Positions 3,223-62,388 of a stretch of 64,000 nucleotides of DNA are shown here, piece by piece (the first letter of the stretch is position 1; each line of letters begins with the position of its first letter). Made by a program: the position numbers and the translations under genes. The notes below the pieces were generated by a model. That model was not told where the DNA came from. It ran no database searches and was given only the letters and a program-made list of their open reading frames with translations. The stretch comes from Octopus sinensis (lineage: Eukaryota). The stretch is from contig NC_042998.1 in NCBI RefSeq assembly GCF_006345805.1, positions 58,342,001-58,406,000 of the forward strand, given 5' to 3'.

Positions 3223-4365
3223 ATCATCATCATCATCATCATCATCAATTAACGTCCGCTTTCCATGCTAGCATGGGTTGGACGGTTCAACTGGGGTCTG
3301 GGGAGCCCGAAAGCTGCACCAGTCCAGTCAGATCTGGCAGTGTTTCTACAGCTGGATGCCCTTCCTAACGCCAACCACTCCGAGAGTGTAGTGGGTGATT
3401 TTATGTGCCACCGACACAGGTGCCAGACGAGGCTGGCAAACGGCCACGCTCGGATGGTGTTTTTTATGTGCCACCGACACAGGTGCCAGACGAGGCTGGC
3501 AGACGGCCACGCTCGGATGGTGTTTTTTATGTGCCACCGACACAGGTGCCAGACGAGGCTGGCAGACGGCCACGCTCGGATGGTGTTTTTTATGTGCCAC
3601 CGACACAGGTGCCAGACGAGGCTGGCAGACGGCCACGCTCGGATGGTGTTTTTATGAGGCTGGCAAACGGCCACGATCGGATGGTGCTTGTTACGTGCCC
3701 ACAGCACGGAGGCCAGTCGATGCGGTACTGGCTACGGCCACGTTCGGATGGTTTTCTTGTGTGCCACAGGCACTGGTACCACAAAGATACAAATTCCATT
3801 GATGTTCATCTATTTTGATTGATTTTCACTTGCCTCAGCAGGTCTTCACAAGTGTCACAAGAAGGAAGGTATGCACAGGTGGATCGACTACGTCCCAGGT
3901 AGGGGCCACGGGATATGGCCTGACTAGTCCTGCCGGGTCCTCTCATGCACAGCACACTTCCATAGGACTCGGTCTTCAGTCATTTCCTTGGTGAGACCTA
4001 AAGTTCGAAGGTCGTGCTTCACCACCTCGTCCCAGGTTTTCCTGGGTCTACCTCTTCCACAGGTTCCCTCAACTGCTAGGGTGTAGCACTTTTGCACACA
4101 ACTATCTTCAACCATTCTCGTCACATGACCATACCAGCGCAGCCGTCTCTCTTGCACACCACAACTGACACTTCTTAGGTTCAACTTTTCTCTCAAAGTA
4201 CTTACACTCTGACGATTATGAACACTGACATTACACATCCATCGGAGCATACTGGCTTCATTTCTTGCAAGCTTACGCATATCCTCAGCTGTCACGGCCC
4301 ATGTTTCACTACCATGTAGCATGGCTGTACGTACATACGCATCATATAGTCTGCCTTTTACTACT
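3223..4365 (-). mobile_element. 5'-truncated RTE-clade non-LTR retrotransposon (ORF C-terminus, 3'UTR, (GAT)n tail)
   Basis: ORF 3924-4370 has the typical RTE C-terminal motifs LHGSETW, RRLRWYGHV, RGRPRKTW and DR..W. The 3'UTR runs to a (GAT)n tail at about 3223-3246. Confidence 0.9.
3398..3655. repeat. Four near-identical 63-bp tandem units in the RTE 3'UTR
   Basis: ATGTGCCACCGACACAGG starts at 3403, 3466, 3529 and 3592. Confidence 0.95.
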
Positions 4366-6135
4366 TGCATATTCTACTTGCATATTCTCAAGTGCCATCT
4401 CACACCTATATATATTTTCACTATTGAATAGGATACATTTATCATTAAAGATAGTTTTGAATACATATTCATGAAACCTCTGATTTATCAGTTAGGGCAA
4501 TAGAATCTTTTTCTCTATTGATTTATTTCATATATCCACGCATAAAACCAAAGAAATTTTTGAGGATAAGGGTGAATTTTACTGCATTGAATTTTTCCCA
4601 GTACACTATTAATAATGTATTTATTTTATCAGTTATAAGGGAGGAGAAAATAGAGCCAACCCTCAAAGGATTTAAACTTCAAGCATTTGCATAAGATGGA
4701 ATGATAGATTAGAAGATTTGTTTAAGCAGTGGATTAAATACCTCACGGTGTTTAATTACAGCCTTTAAATTTTGCAGTTTAAATCCCTTTGAAATTAAAT
4801 TTGCCTTTAATCATTTTGAGATCCATAAACTAAAGTACCAGTCAAATACTAGGTTTGATTTAATTGATTCTGACCTACCCCAAAATATTCAGCCTTGTAG
4901 TGTGGGTTAATATAGATAATGTAGTGAACCATTCAGAAGTTTCAATCTGCTGAAATTATACTCATAATGAGAAATGCATTAACTTTAATGACAATTCAAA
5001 CCAAGAAAGCCAAGGGAAAGAACTACAAGCTTATTAATGAGCAACAGATTAAACAATGACATGCAGTGATAAAGGAATCTAATTTTTGTTAGTTGTAGTG
5101 GCAACTGCTTTATACTTTGGCATTATGCAGTAAGATTGTAAAAGAAGAGTATGTTCCCTTAATTGACCTAAATTTATGTGGTACTGTTTATCAGCCTTGT
5201 TAGGATAAAGGCAAAAATCCATCCCAGCTGGATTTTAGCTCAATTATAAATATATATATATATTTACTCTTTATACTCTTTTACTTGTTTCAGTCATTTG
5301 ACAGTGGCCATGCTGGAGTACCAACTTTTTAGTCGAGCAAATCAACCCCAGGACTTATTCTTTGTAAGCCTAGTACTTACTTATTCTATCGGTCTCTTTT
5401 GCCAAACCGCTAAGTTATGGGGATATATATATATATATATACAAACAAAATTAAATACTGTTTGGCATTTTGGTTTGCTGTTCTGCCATTCTTACAATTC
5501 CTTTAACTTTAGAATGCTCTAATATTCAAACCTTTCTAAATGTTATTCTGAAAATTTTTCTTAATCCTTCCTTTGTATTATTAGTTGTCTCTAAAATTCC
5601 CTTCTCTTCCTGATCCTTGTTTTTCACATCAACCAGTACTCTTCATTTGCTCAAAATAAAAATCAACACTAATGAAAGAAAACTATCACAAATACTTTGC
5701 TTGGGAAATTCTTGAACTTAGACTAATAGATAAGTAAAATTGTTGTCCAAGAAACATGATGTAAGACTAGCAGCATATTTTTATTCATTCCATATAAGTC
5801 CCAAAGCCATTAGTTTTTTCCAATATATGCTACTATCTTAGATTTACTTATAAGCACAGGCATGGCTGTGTGGTTAAAAATCTTGCTTCTAAATGTTGTG
5901 GTTTCAGATCAGTCCCACTGATTGGCACTTTATACAATTGTTTTCTACTATCACCCAGGCCCAATTAAAGGCTTGTGACTGGGTTTATAACCAAGTGTTG
6001 AAAGAAACCCATTGTGTCAAGATAACAATGATAGTTGGTAACTGATGAGGAGTTGAGCATGTCTGTCTCTCTTGTGTGTTTTTCTCAATGTTCCTTTGTT
6101 GTCTCAGTGTGCTACATTTGTATCATATATGTATT

Positions 6136-15530: not shown

Positions 15531-16860
15531 AAGAGAAAGTAAGAAGAAAAATAAGTGAAAATGCACATTGGAAATCAAAAAAAGGAAGGCTTTTTATGAA
15601 AAGTAACAATAGATATATACAATTAGATGAACTGAGGTAGGAATAAAAGTTATAAAAGTCATTATTGTGAATTGTTAAAGAGGTTTAAAAGCATACCGGT
15701 TTTGTAAAATTACTAATCATTGCTTTGAATGTGCACCGATTACTGAATGTTGTCAGGTCTACTAGTCCCTGAGTAAAAAGATAATGAGTAAGGGAGGTAA
15801 GTAGTTCTGGATATGGTGCAATTAGGGTAGAAATAGATCTGTAATGTGAATGGTGTATGGGATGTATGTGGGTTAGTGGTATTAATTGAAAGGTTAGTAG
15901 TGTTCTGTATTATGTAATGTGTTCATATTGAGTTGGGGAAGATATTTATTGATGAACGTTGCCTCTTTATTCATTCTTTGTTGTACTGAGGTGCTCTGTG
16001 AACATTGATAGAAGGGGAAAATTAGGAAATTAGGATTAAGATACCTAGCACACCTTTCTATCTGTTCACTGACCTGTATCTGCCTGTATTGTGGGTGGTG
16101 GATTTGTTCTTTGTGGAGAGTGGTTCTTCGATGGAGTGATATTCTTGTTTGGCCAATACAATTATTACCACACCCTCAGCATGTAATGGCATAAATTAGA
16201 TTTTCTGAGGCACAGGTGAAATTTCATTTAATCTTAAATATTTCACCTTGCTTAAGGTGGAACTCTGAACCCTCCAAAAGGTGGGGGCATGAACCACAGT
16301 TAGGTCGACCAGATTTTTTCACTTTTGGTTCTGTTGTTAATGGATGGAATCTTGTACTGGTTAATATTTTTTTCAATGATTTTGGTTGCATTTTGCTTTT
16401 AATAATTTTGTGTGAGCTTAACATTTTGTTCATTGTTTTATCTCCTGTGAGGATGGGAAGATTTTGGAGGGTAATGTTGAAGGCTTCGTTGTTTCTAGGG
16501 TTATGTGTAGAGATGCATGGGAGTATTTATAAGTCTGGTTTAGTATTTCAGCTGGCTTCCCTTAATGTTCACATATCTATTTCCTTTGCTCATTTAATGC
16601 CATCATTTATTAATGATATAGGGTAATGTCTTTTTATTAGTATTGATCTGAGTTCAAGGAGTCTTCATTAATGAGTATAGGTGTCCGAAACTATGGTACA
16701 GATTCTTTTCGCTAGATTATAAGGTATATTGATTTTTACGTGTTTGGTGTAGCATGAGTTGAATAATAGGTATTGTTTAGAATCTGTGGGTTTATAGAAG
16801 ATGTCTGTTTCGATGTGGTTATTGACTATTTTAATTAAGATGTCAAGAAAAGGGAAAGAA
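15531..16860 (-). mobile_element. 5'-truncated, decayed Penelope-like retroelement (RT thumb and GIY-YIG endonuclease)
   Basis: FLDILIKIVNNHIETDIFYKPTDSKQYLLFNSC (RT thumb), GRPNCGSCPHL and NFTCASENLIYAITC*GCGNNCIGQT (GIY-YIG), with stops. The 3' end abuts a (TA)n run. Confidence 0.88.
15688..15726 (-). ncRNA. Degenerate minimal type I hammerhead ribozyme in Penelope terminal region
   Basis: Minus strand AAAGCA-ATGATTA-GTAAttTTAC-AAAA-CCGG-TA-TGCTTT. Stems I and II and palindromic stem III are intact; the core is mutated from CTGATGA/GAAA. Confidence 0.6.
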
Positions 16861-17919
16861 ACAAATGGTTTTAGATTTTGCAACAATTGTTTCACTAGGA
16901 TTTTTAATTAATATGATCATAATAGAATATTATGGATTACATTATGCATTATGTGATTTCCCATGTTCATCAGCATTATTTAAAACAGAATTAAATAAAG
17001 ACTTGTGAAGCTATCCATTGATGCCTTGATTCTTTACGAATCCTATATAGCAGTGGTACCCCAACAACTACTGTATCCCAGTAGTGGCAGTGATCCAGCA
17101 TGTCAGCAACTCTCAAACTGAAACTTGTAAAAGTATAAAAGAAAGAGTTAACCAAAAATATATATTTTTTAGAAAATGCGTCCTTCATTGGTTTTGGCAG
17201 CTTATCAGTAAAGTATTTCAATTGTTTGAGTAAATAAGCAACTTATTAGAAAATGAGTGTAATGTAGTTGAGTTTTCCACAGACTCTGAACTCTAAATAA
17301 AAGTCTTGTTTAGAATCAGGATGGCTAAATGTGTGCCAAAAATGACCAAAGATGAATTACAGCAACTGTTCTTTCAGATTTCCATGTAATTTGTGTCTTC
17401 TCAATTTCATTTATAGAATTGAAGCTATGGTAAAAACACTGAGCATGCATTGAAATCAAAAATTGATACATATATGACTGCAGCAATATATATATATGAG
17501 CACAATTGTGGCTGTCCCAACATCATCATTTTATCACAAAAGAACTGTGTCTCTGTGACAGATTTCTTCTTCAGAGAACAACTACTTCAACTCTCAACTT
17601 AACCTATAAAACTCATAATGGAGTATTGCTCCCAGGTCTGGGATAGTGCTGCTGCTACACACAGAGACACACTTCTCATGACACATTAGCACATATATCC
17701 CATGACACACCAAGGTACACCCAATAACATCAATATACAACCCCTGACACAACAAAATACTCTTCACAGCATACCATGATATATCTCATGTTATACCAAC
17801 ATATGCACCATGACACATAAATATATAGCTGACATCCGACCAACATACATTCCATGTCCCACCAACATACATCCCATGCCTACTAACATGTATTCCATTA
17901 TACACTGACCTCATCCATA

Positions 17920-30906: not shown

Positions 30907-31160
30907 ATTATAGCCGGCGGCACTTTGTGATGCAATCAGATATAGGAACAAATTATATATATACTGAAGAACTTCTATTAATCCAAAAAATTCTTCATTT
31001 TCCTGAAGAAGTAGCTTTATCGTTAACAGAGACGGAATATGAGTTATTCAATCGAATACCTCCTGCACAATACATACGCCAAGTTAGTCTTGACCTTATC
31101 AGACCAATAACAAATAAAAAACAAGTATCAGTTGAGGATCTTCTTCAAAGATTTGGAGAG
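30907..31160 (+). CDS. PLCE1: Internal coding exon B; start of CDC25/RasGEF domain of PLC-epsilon-like protein
   Basis: TTTCATTCTCCTCCACAG acceptor, phase 1 in, GAG|GTAAGT donor, phase 0 out. Protein (D)YSRRHFVMQSD...ILHFPEEVALSLTETEYELFNRIPPAQYIRQVSLDL...VEDLLQRFGE matches the FPEEVA...LEDLVMRFNE pattern I recall from vertebrate PLCE1. Confidence 0.88.
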
Positions 31161-47939: not shown

Positions 47940-49220
47940 TACGAGGGGTGTCTGAAAAGTCTTGAGCCTCAAAAAAACAAAACATAGTACAAGACTTCTG
48001 ATGATTTATTTTTCAACATAGAACCCTTTGATGGCTGAACACTTTCTCCAGTGGTGCTGAAGTGCCATTATCCCAGCGTAGGGGAACTCTTTTGTTTGAG
48101 ACTTTAAGAAACTTCCTACAGTATCTATGACGTCATTGTCAGTGGCAAAATGGCGACCAGCCAGGGCTTTTTTCATTTTTGGGAATAGATGAAAGTCAGA
48201 GGAGGCCAAGTCTGGTGAATAAGACAGATGGGGAACAATTTCGTATCCACAATCACGAATTGTTGCCATGGCAACCACTGAGGTGTGGGCTGGAGCATTG
48301 TTGTGATGAAAAAGGACTCCTCTGGTGAGCATTCCTGGCCTTTTTTCTTTGATTGCTTCCTGGAGGCATTACAGTAGCTGAGAATAATACAGCCCTTTTC
48401 AAGGTAATCGATCAGCTGGACACCTTGAGAATAAAAAAAAAAACTGATGCCATGACCTTGCCAGCTGAAGGAATGATCTGACCTTCTTTGCAGTAGGAGA
48501 AGATGTGCTTCCACTGCTTTGATTGTTCTTTGGTTTCAGGCTGGTAGTGATGAACCCAACTTTCGTCCATAGAAATAAAATGAGCAAGAAAATTCTCTTC
48601 ATCGGCTTCAAACAGTTCCAGTTTACTCGTGGACAAAGTACACCTGGTGCGTTTCTGTTCAGGAGTCAAAAGGCAAGGGACCCACCTTGCAGAAACCTTT
48701 GAGAACCCAAATTCTTTTGTCACAATAATGTCTGCTCTTTCCTTTGAGATGCCCAGTCTCTCAGCTATCTGGTAACATAATATTCGATGATCTTGCATTA
48801 TCATACCAAGAGCAAATTCAATGTTGTGCTCGGTGGTTGCAGCTGGAGGCCTCCCTGGTGTGGGATCATCTTCCACACTCTCCCTGCCATGCTGGAATTC
48901 ATTTACCCAGCGTTTGACGGTTGCATATCAAGGAGCATTGTCTGTTAAGGTTCTCACCATATCTTCATGGATTTCTGATGGAGTCATGCCTTTCAAATGA
49001 CGGTACTTTACGACAGCACAATACTCAGTTTTCTCCATTTTCCTTGTAAACTCGACACTTGTTTCTTCAAAAATCTGTAACAAAAAAAATTAAAATATCA
49101 GAATCATGAAAATGAGCAAGAATACTCCAAAAAGACTGTACTTACCAGAAAAAAACTGTTTCAGCTACCTAGCAGCCCCGTTTGTAGATTAGGCTCAGAA
49201 CATTTCATACATCCATCATA
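47940..49220 (-). mobile_element. Full-length (about 1.28 kb) defective mariner, irritans/Himar1-like
   Basis: About 30-bp imperfect TIRs including terminal TA (TACGAGGGGTGTCTGAAAAGTCTTGAGCCT / AGGCTCAGAACATTTCATACATCCATCATA). Confidence 0.93.
48006..49038 (-). pseudogene. DD34D mariner transposase pseudogene
   Basis: MEKTEY..., WVP..LT.EQK, ISMDESWVHHY, SAGKVMASVF, IDYLEKG, FHHNNA (second Asp changed to Asn), YSPDLASSDFHLF, YVEK*; contains an in-frame stop and frameshifts. Confidence 0.9.
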
Positions 49221-58848: not shown

Positions 58849-59708
58849 ATCAAAAGGCCAAACAAGTTTCCATAGCTTTGACAAAGGTCACAATGGCAAG
58901 AGGTGCTTGTGCTGCTTGTGTTCTTGACTTTTATTGATTGTTCTCCATCCACTGAGATTGTTCCTACTTGTAACTTCCAGGGGTTTGATCTTCCCACACA
59001 TGCACGCACACATGCACACACACATGCATACATACACACACATACAAACACCCATCCGCACATACACACACACACAAACAAACACATATACACACACACA
59101 CAAACAAACACATATACACACACACACACACATTTTATGTGTATATTTATTGGAAACCAATCTCCTGATCAAATCAAAATGTTTCCATTGCTGTCATTTT
59201 TTTTAGTCACACTTCTTAACAGAAGTTGACAAAAAGCATTGATTGACAGCTGAGTTGACAAATACAAGGTAAACCAGCTGAAATGATGGAAGTTCACACT
59301 CTGTCTGTGGCACTATGATGAGTTTTGTGTTGCTGATTAAGTATACTTAACTTTAAGCATGTTAATTAACCATGGTCAAGCAAACTTATAATCAAAGACA
59401 GCCTAGCCATAACCCTCCCATCTCTTTGCGTATAGACTATTTTGTCTCTTTACTTATGGCCATATCAAGATGAAAATACTGATTCTGATTCGATAAACAA
59501 AGTTAAGCAACATTGAGCCAAGTTAGTAATTAGATGCATTAGCACTTTAGGGAAACTTATATGCTATATGCATCATCTACCTCATATATGGTTCCAGACC
59601 TCCAGTAAAAAAAGGCCCAAACTATACTTTTCCATTCAGTTATTTAGAAATTTAGAAATTCAATATTTCTAATTTTGGTGATTAGTGAATAGATTTCATT
59701 GAAAATAT

Positions 59709-59913
59709 ATATATTTGCAAAACCTTGGCAAACATCTCAACTAGCAGGCCTTGCTACCCTAGACTGATGATGAGCAAGACTCAGAAAAATGCATGTCTCT
59801 AGGTGCAGGCCCTAGCTGGTGGGGGTGCTTGTCTCCCCTTCACAAATATAAGGACACAGGAAATATGTCAAAGCCGACAGAAAGTGTCGATGCTTCCTAG
59901 GGCTAAATAGCAG
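59709..59913 (+). ncRNA. Putative degenerate HDV-like ribozyme fold enclosing the hammerhead
   Basis: P1 TATATTT/AAATATA, P2 TGCT/AGCA, L3 TCCCCTT, P1.1 CC/GG, P4 AGGAA..CGACA-gaaag-TGTCG..TTCCT and J4/2 GGCTAA occur in canonical order, with several mismatches. Confidence 0.45.
59758..59803 (+). ncRNA. Type I hammerhead ribozyme motif
   Basis: CCTAGA (stem I), CTGATGA, TGAG-caaga-CTCA (stem II), GAAA, a-ATGCAT-g (palindromic stem III), TC, TCTAGG (stem I'). Predicted cut after C59797. Confidence 0.78.
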
Positions 59914-60767
59914 TGGTGTGATTCCCTTTACAGGACTGTCATGTTAAGTTGACAGTATACAACCACTCTGTCACTCCACCATCACTCATATCTCTCCGAG
60001 ATATTTAGAAATTTAATATTTCTAATATGTTTGATTAATTTAATTTAATATTCCACTAAAGGAAAGTTCTGAAATACAAACTGCCTGCACCTTGCTTTTA
60101 TAAAGAACTCAGTGATTGCAAGTTAGTTGCTTCTGCTTAGAACTCATTAGTTGTCTGCCACGAAGAAGCATAAGAAGAAGAATTAATACAGAAAAGGAGC
60201 TACTGTAACAACATGTGCAATTGAATGACCTGTCGCAATTAATAAAGGAGGTTATGACTATTTTTGCATTATTTTCTGTCCAATCCATGTTTACATATAC
60301 ACACATTGCATATGTGTGTATATAACTTTTTTTCAAAATCCAATGTCCATACGCTAAAGATGGTGTTCATGCAAGTACATTCAAATATATCACATATAAG
60401 CAGGATCCTGTGTGGATGGATATGGAATTAGATTCACTGTTAAATGCCCACCAACCATTTGATTTTCAGTAGTTCCTACTTGCTATGTTATTACACAGTT
60501 GCGGAGGAGAAGACAAGTGCAAATAGGTGACAAGGAAGATAAGTATTTTCAAGGATATTAATGATATAAGTATACTCTAGGCACAAGTCCTGAAATTTTG
60601 GGGGAGGCGTCCAGTCAATTAGATCGACCCAGTATGCAACTGGTACTTAATTTATCGACTCCGAAAGGATGAAAGGCAAAGTCAACCTCGGTGGAATTTG
60701 AACTCAGAATGTAAAGACAGACGAAATACCACTAAGCATTTCACCTGGCATGCTAATGTCTGCCAGC

Positions 60768-61545
60768 TGCTGGAGCACCGCCTTAAAGGGTTCTAAGTGA
60801 AACAAATCAACCCCAGGACTTATTCTTTGTAAGCCAAGTACTTATTCTATCAGTCTCTTTTGCTGAAACACTAAGTTACAGGGGCATAAACACACTAGCA
60901 TTGGTTGTCAAGTGATGATGGCAGAGACAAACACAGATACACACAAATATACGCATACATACATATGTAAATAAATATATACATATATATATTTTACCCT
61001 TTACTATATATATTTTACCCTTTACTATATATATATATATATATAGTAAAGGGTAAAATTAACTAATTAATTAATTAATAATTAATGATTTTACCAAGTA
61101 GTTAGGTATATTAAAAAAAACAATATCGGTAAACTTATACAAAAATTCTATAATTATGAGGAGTATAAGTATAATTAGGGTTCAGCAAAAACTTGCTTCA
61201 CCACATACTGAAATATAAAAATAGCAGTTAAAACTACTATTTCACTACCATAAGTAGTGAAATAGTAGTTTTAACTGCTATTTCTAAATTTTGGTATGTT
61301 GTGAAGCAAATTTTTGCTGAACCCTAATTATAATTATACTCATAATTATTGAATTTTCATATACATATACATATATATATATATACACACAAATGGCTTC
61401 TTCAAGTTTTTATCTACAAAATCTACTCTCAAGGGTTTGGTTGGCCTGAGGCTATAGTATAAGACACTTGCCCAAGGTGTAACACAGTGGGACTGAACCT
61501 TGTGGTTAGGAAGCAAGCTTCTTACCACACAGCCATGCCTGCGCT
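60768..61545 (-). mobile_element. SINE family A with hairpin insertion in its (TA)n tract
   Basis: Tail half at about 60768-60990 and head half at about 61360-61545. Confidence 0.75.
61142..61357. repeat. Hairpin, about 105-bp arms with 5-nt loop
   Basis: ...AATAGCAGTTAAAACTACTATTTCACTAC-cataa-GTAGTGAAATAGTAGTTTTAACTGCTATT... Confidence 0.93.
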
Positions 61546-61664: not shown

Positions 61665-61810
61665 GTCAGCAGTTGGATTACCCATTTAATCATTACCCAA
61701 CCAACACATGATGACAGAAAAGCCATACTATCCTGTATCCTCAGATTAGCTTCATATTGTCTTATTATTGGAAACTTCAACTCTGCCATTGAAATTGTAA
61801 CTGGCCTTAA
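61665..61810 (+). CDS. PLCE1: Internal coding exon C; CDC25/RasGEF domain
   Basis: CCTTTTCTGTTACAG acceptor, phase 0 matching exon B, AA|GTGAGT donor (phase 2). VSSWITHLIITQPTHDDRKAILSCILRLASYCLIIGNFNSAIEIVTGLK carries the RasGEF W...GNFNS...GL motif and matches PLCE1 VSSWVTWLIL...GNYNAVMEFLAGL as recalled. Confidence 0.9.
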
Positions 61811-62388
61811 GTGAGTATTGTGGCTTTATTTTATATTTTTTTCTTTTTATTTCTCGTATTTTCTTTCTCCTGAAAAAGTTTCTTTTTCTTTTTTCTTCAT
61901 GAAGGAATCACATCTAACTAGTTGCTGAACATGCTAAAAATAACAATCAACTCTCACTCAAACTATATGCCACTGTTTGTCTTAAAATAGGAAATAGTAC
62001 ATTAAATAGTGTAGTTCAGGATATTTCTTTATTGACTGTGGCCATGCTGGGTTTCTGGCTTGAAGGGTTTTACTCAAACAAATCAGCCTCAGTACTTATC
62101 TTTAGTCTGGTATCTATTCTGTTAGCCTCTTTTGCCACACTGCCTGATTATGGGGATATAAACAAACCAACACCAGTTGTCAAGCAATGGTCAGAGGAGA
62201 GACAAATAGGGACACAAACATACACACACACAATGGACTTCCGCATAGTTTCCAAATACCAAACTCATTTACAAGGTATCGGATGCCCTGGGGTTATATG
62301 GAAAATGTCCAAAGGGCCAAGCAGTAGGACTGGAACCAAAATCACATGGTTGCAAAATGAGCTTCTTAACTACACAGCCATACCTGCT

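Follow-up and report, generated by a model that had tools for sequence, protein, structure and literature searches.

A type I hammerhead in an intron of an Octopus sinensis PLC-epsilon-like gene lies in a decayed retrozyme copy, probably spread by Penelope-like enzymes

As we hold with good confidence, the hammerhead motif in an intron of a PLC-epsilon-like gene of Octopus sinensis belongs to one of the scattered copies of a non-LTR retrozyme. This copy has decayed, is likely inactive, was likely put in place by the enzymes of a Penelope-like element (PLE) and likely has no role in PLC-epsilon. What is new is that a retrozyme carries Penelope integration marks and that site-specific LINE-type inserts lie beside its hammerhead. 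The whole stretch of DNA analysed, called the window in the following, is 64,000 nt long. A first-pass annotation of it had proposed a type I hammerhead, and a scan with a type I descriptor finds all core boxes of the motif at the coordinates which that annotation gave. The parts of the motif are the following:

59741..59757, + strand: 5' strand of the stem I extension, bulged, with loop 1 (predicted fold)
59758..59763, + strand: stem I 5' strand CCTAGA, pairing with 59798-59803 (TCTAGG) (descriptor scan; two-sided changes at 4 of 6 pairs)
59764..59770, + strand: catalytic core box CUGAUGA, CTGATGA in the DNA (descriptor scan; alignment of copies)
59771..59783, + strand: stem II with its 5-nt loop, the basal pair being U-A here (alignment of copies)
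59784..59787, + strand: core box GAAA (descriptor scan)
59787..59796, + strand: stem III, a short palindrome, broken at 59788 (133-copy alignment; fold predictions)
59796..59798, + strand: end of the GUC triplet (TC at 59796-97) with predicted cleavage at 59797/59798 (hammerhead consensus position)
59798..59816, + strand: stem I 3' strand and extension (predicted fold; descriptor scan)

The 6-bp stem I with a bulged extension that had been annotated is confirmed by scan and fold, and the 4-bp stem II by the scan; in the window copy, stem II reads TGAG/CTCA (59771-74/59780-83) around the loop CAAGA. The palindromic stem III stands in part: a palindrome is there, but that of the family is 10 nt long (ACATGCATGT) and not ATGCAT alone. 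Two deviations had also been pointed out. The A.G at 59788/59795, where C-G is usual, is real, and leaves the window copy without a paired stem III position next to A15.1-U16.1; the U-A at the base of stem II, however, does not replace a usual G-C, as this position is a C.A mismatch in 80 of 133 copies and U-A in 49. A U.U at the stem II base is tolerated in known hammerheads (passages of PMC3088659), and the axolotl HHR_Amex2 likewise has a tolerated mismatch there (PMC7229834). The bulged stem I and a loop 2 of 5-6 nt ending in A are present, and a contact between loops 1 and 2 is a candidate only.

The probability that the motif merely resembles a hammerhead by chance is practically nil. 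In favor of chance, one could cite that the Rfam hammerhead models have no match in the window and that the 76-nt motif stretch does not stand out from shuffles in its folding (z -1.02); its minimum-energy fold buries the core, pairing it with stem III sequence. The Rfam blank is uninformative, because intact family copies were missed too, at all 4 loci submitted. The descriptor matches only once in the whole 64-kb window, counting both strands, and when the window was dinucleotide-shuffled 100 times, loose matches averaged 0.05 per shuffle and no strict match occurred. Hundreds of homologues keep the core while their stems covary, and the family alignment has thus already refuted this reading.

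These homologues bear out the earlier suggestion of a ribozyme-bearing retroelement family in this genome. The extent proposed for the repeat, 59685-60002, is replaced on genome comparison by a longer one:

59646..60026, + strand: repeat copy, made of a 353-nt monomer (59646-59998) and a 28-nt repeat of the monomer start (59999-60026) (genome search, tandem copies)

The copy in the window is 381 nt in all, and tandem copies elsewhere have a period of 353-354 nt (L006, L173). A DNA search of the own genome, in which 40 of 2674 first-look candidates were scored, gave 58 matches of 82-95% identity. The family sequence GAAACATGCATGTC, which the annotation had predicted, was found in homologous copies by genome search: exact matches to the core plus GAAACATGCATGTC number 299 genome-wide (reversed control 0), and two overlapping patterns for stem II variants, allowing up to 3 mismatches, gave 274 and 360 matches (reversed controls 0). 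Relatives with an intact core in the genome are at least 299. The 133 copies that span the hammerhead comprise three subfamilies of 46, 57 and 22 copies and 8 others, and the median identity is 88-92% within subfamilies and 82-87% between them; the family is therefore not visibly amplifying now. Stem III-like matches at L171 and L172 were rejected as family members, having no relation to the repeat unit, and L153-L156 (contig C27, 8.1-8.6 Mb) are copies that were duplicated along with a C2H2 zinc-finger gene cluster.

Covarying stems, also predicted earlier, are found in the 133-copy alignment and in a shuffle test. In stem I, the pair 59763/98 is A-U in 105 copies and G-C in 19, 59761/800 is A-U in 69 and G-C in 52, 59760/801 is U-A in 110 and C-G in 8, and 59758/803 is C-G in 73 and U-A in 41; in stem II, 59773/81 is G-C in 79 and A-U in 46. 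These are counts of sequences, in which many copies share a few events by descent. Core patterns served to gather most of the copies, which inflates core conservation. The shuffle test was run on 56 distinct ungapped rows (the window copy and 55 of the other 132), leaving out duplicates and rows with indels, including the subfamily with a 6-nt loop. It gave 57 two-sided cells versus 25.0 +/- 3.5 in shuffles (0 of 500 shuffles), and slid structures, used as a control, gave 0-4; the pairs with two-sided change, 5 in number, are in no excess over shuffles (204 of 500). Stems I and II are backed by this covariation, which comes from related sequences and few independent events.

In its unit, the family agrees with the metazoan non-LTR retrozymes, such as the 350-390-bp repeats of mussel and the axolotl Rtz_353 with HHR_Amex2 (PMC7229834; Cervera and de la Pena 2020). 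The 353-nt unit is non-coding, lies within the 150-450 bp of such units and holds a canonical type I hammerhead, with a short palindromic stem III and a mismatch at the stem II base, and the predicted circular monomer is highly self-paired (z -3.3 to -10.5; 5 copies, 25 shuffles each). Unlike in those retrozymes, nearly every copy is a truncated monomer that stands by itself in the genome and has Penelope-type ends. Tandems, too, are scarcer than in classical retrozymes: 3 intact dimers were found genome-wide, no long array was seen in the assembly, and 6 of 160 insertions hold at least 1.5 monomers, the longest array having 2.1.

The ends of the copies point to the machinery that inserted them. 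Across 160 distinct insertions, the 5' ends fall at many places of the monomer. The 3' ends, counted over 196 arms, lie at monomer 316-333 in 85, at the end of the 28-nt tail in 57, at the monomer junction in 29, for which the tail may have escaped BLAST, and elsewhere in 25. In the window copy the first of the two fixed ends is passed over:

59961..59978, + strand: first fixed 3' end (monomer 316-333), beyond which the window copy continues to the second end at 60026 (85 of 196 arms)

The two fixed ends are ~57 nt apart. An inverted 5' arm is present in 43 of the 160 insertions, and these inverted insertions combine the first end with the tail end in 15 cases, the first end with the junction in 14, and the first end twice in 1 of the 43. 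The 12 nt past the 3' ends are 79.5% AT (142 ends). In 123 of 160 insertions the flanks lack an exact repeat of at least 6 nt, the other 37 having been counted without a low-complexity filter; a flanking direct repeat of 28-39 nt was rejected as a target duplication, as it is the start of the next monomer.

PLEs leave partial tandems, an inverted 5' copy and a tail on one arm (passages of PMC8557442), and they use two internal start sites of reverse transcription and AT-rich targets (PMC11167929). With PLEs and their pLTR hammerheads (PMC4209133, PMC8557442, PMC11167929), the family shares 5' truncation, partial tandems, the inverted 5' arm, the tail placed on one arm by two 3' ends and the AT-rich targets. 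It differs from PLEs in having no RT/GIY-YIG ORF, in its hammerhead, which is canonical and not minimal (PMC4209133), and in the ~57 nt between its 3' ends, compared with a PLE tail of 30-40 nt. With Penelope-type 5' truncation, inverted 5' arm, one-arm tail (of ~57 nt) and AT-rich target all found in one family, it was likely copied into the genome by the enzymes of a Penelope-like element.

We propose the following course. Transcription would run through a tandem pair of monomers, and the two palindromic stem III halves would pair to form a double hammerhead. Cleavage after GUC would then set free a self-paired 353-nt monomer, which may circularise. Reverse transcription would begin at AT-rich DNA from one of two internal sites, which are separated by ~57 nt, and would give 5'-truncated and 5'-inverted copies. 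A short AT-rich hairpin made by the terminal 28 nt of the family (window 59999-60026 and 59646-59673) marks the second fixed 3' end, and this hairpin is a candidate start site for reverse transcription. Within 1.6 Mb of contig C14 (12.6-14.2 Mb), L006, L015 and L022 have different flanks and a common change at core position G12, which suggests local spread from a cleavage-dead source; by analogy, such copies would fit the in vitro result that hammerhead cleavage is dispensable for PLE insertion (PMC11167929). The two monomers of L015 come from different subfamilies.

Penelope-type ends and inversions, together with the few tandem copies, are also what one would see if the unit were the solo pLTR of an autonomous PLE whose ORF-bearing copies have been lost or lay outside the sample, and retrozymes and pLTRs are related in Xenopus, according to a preprint which derives non-LTR retrozymes from pLTRs (bioRxiv 10.64898/2026.07.22.740005). 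We regard this as quite unlikely. Monomers stand head to tail without an intervening ORF at L006, L015, L173 and L176; no ORF of any kind, PLE or other, is joined to a family copy among the loci examined, and an RT plus GIY-YIG ORF between pLTRs is absent from the copies examined; and the hammerhead has the canonical form in place of the minimal one that PMC4209133 gives for PLEs. A retrozyme that uses Penelope-like enzymes remains our preferred reading.

An autonomous partner was sought by comparing the unit with 40 loci of an abundant PLE family, which gave no similarity, and by comparing 195 distinct 3' flanks, which have no common continuation beyond local duplications and common repeats. 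The abundant family (11,958 candidates) has a broken remnant in the window itself, at 15897-16907 (- strand), and GIY-YIG is found in the relative L061; the remnant was rejected as a partner, as it has no DNA in common with the unit. PLE fragments near L119 and L130 were rejected too, unrelated sequence lying between them and the unit, and three hammerheads that lie 4 kb apart on contig C18 reflect a local duplication in which there is no RT ORF. In L064 and L070, the 3' UTR of the abundant PLE family holds a hammerhead-like motif ~170-230 nt after the ORF stop, with a 7-bp stem I, GAAA, a CCATGG palindrome and a shortened first core box, possibly a core variant. Near 429 (+ strand), L070 has yet another motif that resembles a type I hammerhead; its stem I is 7 bp long, and it is unrelated to the others.

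The window copy sits in a host gene, which raises the question of regulation. Exon domains and strand bear out that the motif is on the sense strand of a PLC-epsilon-like gene, and the distance given earlier, 1.9 kb before an exon, agrees with an exon start at 61665 on the + strand, 1.87 kb past the cleavage site:

61665..61811, + strand: downstream host exon, RasGEF domain of PLC-epsilon (PF00617, E 1.9e-8)

PI-PLC-X exons follow ~100 kb downstream on the same strand of the same contig, and RasGEF followed by PI-PLC-X is what we take to be the domain order of PLC-epsilon. The preceding candidate exon ends with a donor site at 31160; it has no Pfam match and, judging by similarity, is presumably part of the host gene. 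The intron would then be 31161-61664, ~30.5 kb, provided that no exon lies between. PDB searches with two exons gave weak RasGEF matches only. Other repeats in the window are a MITE-like inverted repeat at 61152-61350 (97 nt, 90% complementary, 5-nt spacer), 315 nt upstream of the host exon, a Mariner-like transposase fragment at 48009-48927 on the - strand (HTH_32, E 8.5e-6) and, at 3927-4373 on the - strand, a piece without a Pfam match that, by its resemblance, is presumably the 3' fragment of an RTE-like LINE. A degenerate 5S rRNA copy (59452-59572, + strand; RF00001, 49.3 bits, above gathering) lies 74 nt upstream of the retrozyme copy on the same strand; it was rejected as part of the element, being in none of the other 29 loci from the own-genome search.

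Compared with its 10 nearest copies, the window copy has 15 private changes, of which 8 are CpG-type, including that at 59771; each of the 10 carries C at both 59771 and 59788 and has a C.A stem II base. Judged by these changes, it has decayed like a neutral insertion. The pair 15.2/16.2 is C-G in 128 of the 133 copies and U.G in 4, and A.G in the window copy alone. The change at 59788 breaks the pair of stem III that adjoins the core, and it halves the predicted dimer helix, the two-molecule stem III helix being put at -6.9 kcal/mol for the window copy versus -13.3 for an intact one. The hammerhead fold lies 8.7 kcal/mol above the minimum in the window copy versus 5.9 in an intact near copy, with subfamily medians of 6.1, 3.9 and 2.7 kcal/mol. 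An effect of a 15.2/16.2 mismatch on the rate would be expected from mutagenesis and the folding energies; a literature search on this effect gave nothing usable. The 64 kb contain no hammerhead besides that of the window copy, which is a lone monomer, and without a partner in cis and with the pair next to the core broken it would undergo little or no cleavage.

Because the copy is a lone monomer with a private break at 59788, its cleavage of PLC-epsilon pre-mRNA is predicted to be unlikely, and the earlier idea that it could cut the nascent transcript finds no support in a single monomer with an A.G unique among 133 copies and neutral-like decay. One could argue that the copy still cuts the pre-mRNA, as a slow monomer or in trans with an intact RNA, and so tunes the gene: it is in sense orientation 1.87 kb before an exon, its core boxes are intact, as are the GUC and the stem I 3' part of the substrate strand, and a heterodimer helix with an intact partner is predicted at -10.1 kcal/mol. 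Some natural hammerheads tolerate weak stems II and III (PMC3088659, in part), and amniotes have domesticated intronic type I hammerheads (PMC6155905, in part). We consider this highly improbable, in view of the break at 59788, the CpG-type decay across the copy and the lack of a partner hammerhead in the window; moreover, an intramolecular stem I hairpin (-23 kcal/mol) must open for pairing in trans, and 8 of 9 predicted Xenopus dimers were uncleaved in vitro (bioRxiv 10.64898/2026.07.22.740005). The window copy is like the amniote RECK and CTCL hammerheads in being type I, on the sense strand and in an intron, but those are conserved and active (passages of PMC6155905), whereas it is a decaying repeat. 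An intronic position is common for retrozymes in Xenopus, where 42-44% of copies are intronic (bioRxiv 10.64898/2026.07.22.740005).

Some copies of the family have foreign sequence fused at monomer 85-101, and the site of these inserts maps to the window as follows:

59733..59757, + strand: insertion target in other copies (14-17-nt duplication), empty in the window copy (insert junctions)

There are two inserts, both 45-65 nt upstream of the family cleavage site. The first is a 5.4-kb LINE with CCHC ORF1, APE, RT and zf-RVT, domains that were pieced together from different open frames in 4 natural copies. Its closest named match is in Argonauta hians (62%), and a homologue search with it returned no clade-named references; we call it L1/Tx1-like, a provisional label. 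The second insert, of 1.67 kb, encodes a CCHC ORF1-like protein only, which matches the ORF1 of the LINE at 27-32% (E 1.5e-28), and the two inserts have essentially no DNA in common beyond the terminal AATAAAGA.

The 3' end of each insert was searched alone, 30 of 41 matches being fetched; among the rows are the query locus and a few loci that are duplicated or in tandem. The LINE is followed by the family in 8 of 30 rows, or in 7 of 29 if the query locus is left out; in 1 row a sister hammerhead family follows it, and in 21 neither does. For the 1.67-kb insert the corresponding rows are 17, 4 and 6, the other 3 of the 30 having a target stub followed by another insert; target sequence is on both sides in 13 of its 30 rows (11 loci). 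Exact target duplications of 14-17 nt are present at L281, L283, L287, L124 and L291. By our estimate, a 20-nt window in a few hundred copies makes up a few millionths of the genome, and chance siting of the inserts is therefore excluded. The sister family (L065 near 5336 on the - strand, L271, L278, L280, L298) has different stems I, II and III, with palindromes such as CTGCAG; it also occurs in inverted arrangement and is hit by both inserts.

The inserts could still lack target specificity if one or two chance insertions into a source copy had been spread by the Penelope machinery as composites. Such spread explains part of the distribution: Penelope-type inversions run through the insert in the composites L146, L174 and L282, and for the LINE the insert and target identities are 0.93 and 0.93, with r 0.68 (8 loci). 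Furthermore, 21 of the 30 top LINE copies lie elsewhere, and both queries were taken from inserts that adjoin the repeat. As an account of the whole, it is unlikely. Some inserts are 5'-truncated and have duplications of their own (L281, 2.2 kb; L124, 0.66 kb); the ORF1-only inserts are 94% alike versus 87% for their targets, with r 0.08 (15 loci); inserts are stacked in tandem at one site in L294 and L295; two elements without DNA similarity use the same site; and 4 of 30 rows of the ORF1-only insert and 1 of 30 of the LINE sit in the sister family. From these junctions and identities we infer that two LINE-type elements target one site near the hammerhead in a sequence-specific manner, and the fixed spot upstream of the hammerhead is likely a new kind of insertion target.

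Site preference of this sort is known from the target-specific Tx1-clade LINEs (passages of PMC4494074), such as Tx1 in Tx1D, Keno in U2 snRNA and Tx1-Mar in Mariner-N4. The nested LINE, with its CCHC ORF1, APE, RT and zf-RVT, likewise prefers one site in a multicopy repeat, and the 8 of 30 rows beside the family, accompanied by target duplication, exceed the 20% of flanking repeat by which Tx1 families are called target-specific in that source. It differs in that its target is a hammerhead retrozyme, in two families; the targets given in these passages are DNA transposons, LTR elements, snRNA, 5S, microsatellites and unspecified satellites, of which the last might be a ribozyme repeat. The 1.67-kb insert resembles HAL1 (half-L1; passages of PMC5753468) in encoding an ORF1-like protein only, and differs in coming from an invertebrate, in its strong site specificity and in not being derived, at the DNA level, from the LINE described here.

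It is possible, if doubtful, that the LINE lineage and its ORF1-only partner evolved to insert upstream of the hammerhead and borrow its ribozyme for RNA processing. Target duplication would leave an intact ribozyme after the insert. Within a tandem unit, a transcript started from the repeat would therefore include the insert, which the borrowed hammerheads on its two sides would excise, and ~60 nt of the target, kept at the 3' end of the excised insert, would guide re-insertion.

A literature search for an octopus hammerhead or a cephalopod retrozyme found no such family in titles or abstracts, and the main text of a 2026 Octopus repeat annotation, as far as it was available (PMC13282606), has neither 'hammerhead' nor 'ribozyme'. 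No paper was found in which the words 'retrozyme' and 'Tx1' occur together, nor anything on a LINE targeting a hammerhead repeat, in a literature that excludes most subscription papers and Repbase. LINE-type targeting of a retrozyme is thus a target class that we did not find in print.

In itself, the window copy is ordinary: it adds a member to a known class and is probably dead. Penelope marks directly on retrozyme copies bear on how animal retrozymes move, by rolling circle or by Penelope reverse transcription of a linear tandem RNA, and the two start sites of reverse transcription named here can be tested. As a preferred target of two LINE-type elements, the family makes up a parasite chain of three levels (Penelope, retrozyme and LINE) and provides a new sequence-specific endonuclease target to test. 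If the borrowing of the ribozyme proves true, a retrotransposon would use the ribozyme of its target as its own RNA-processing signal.
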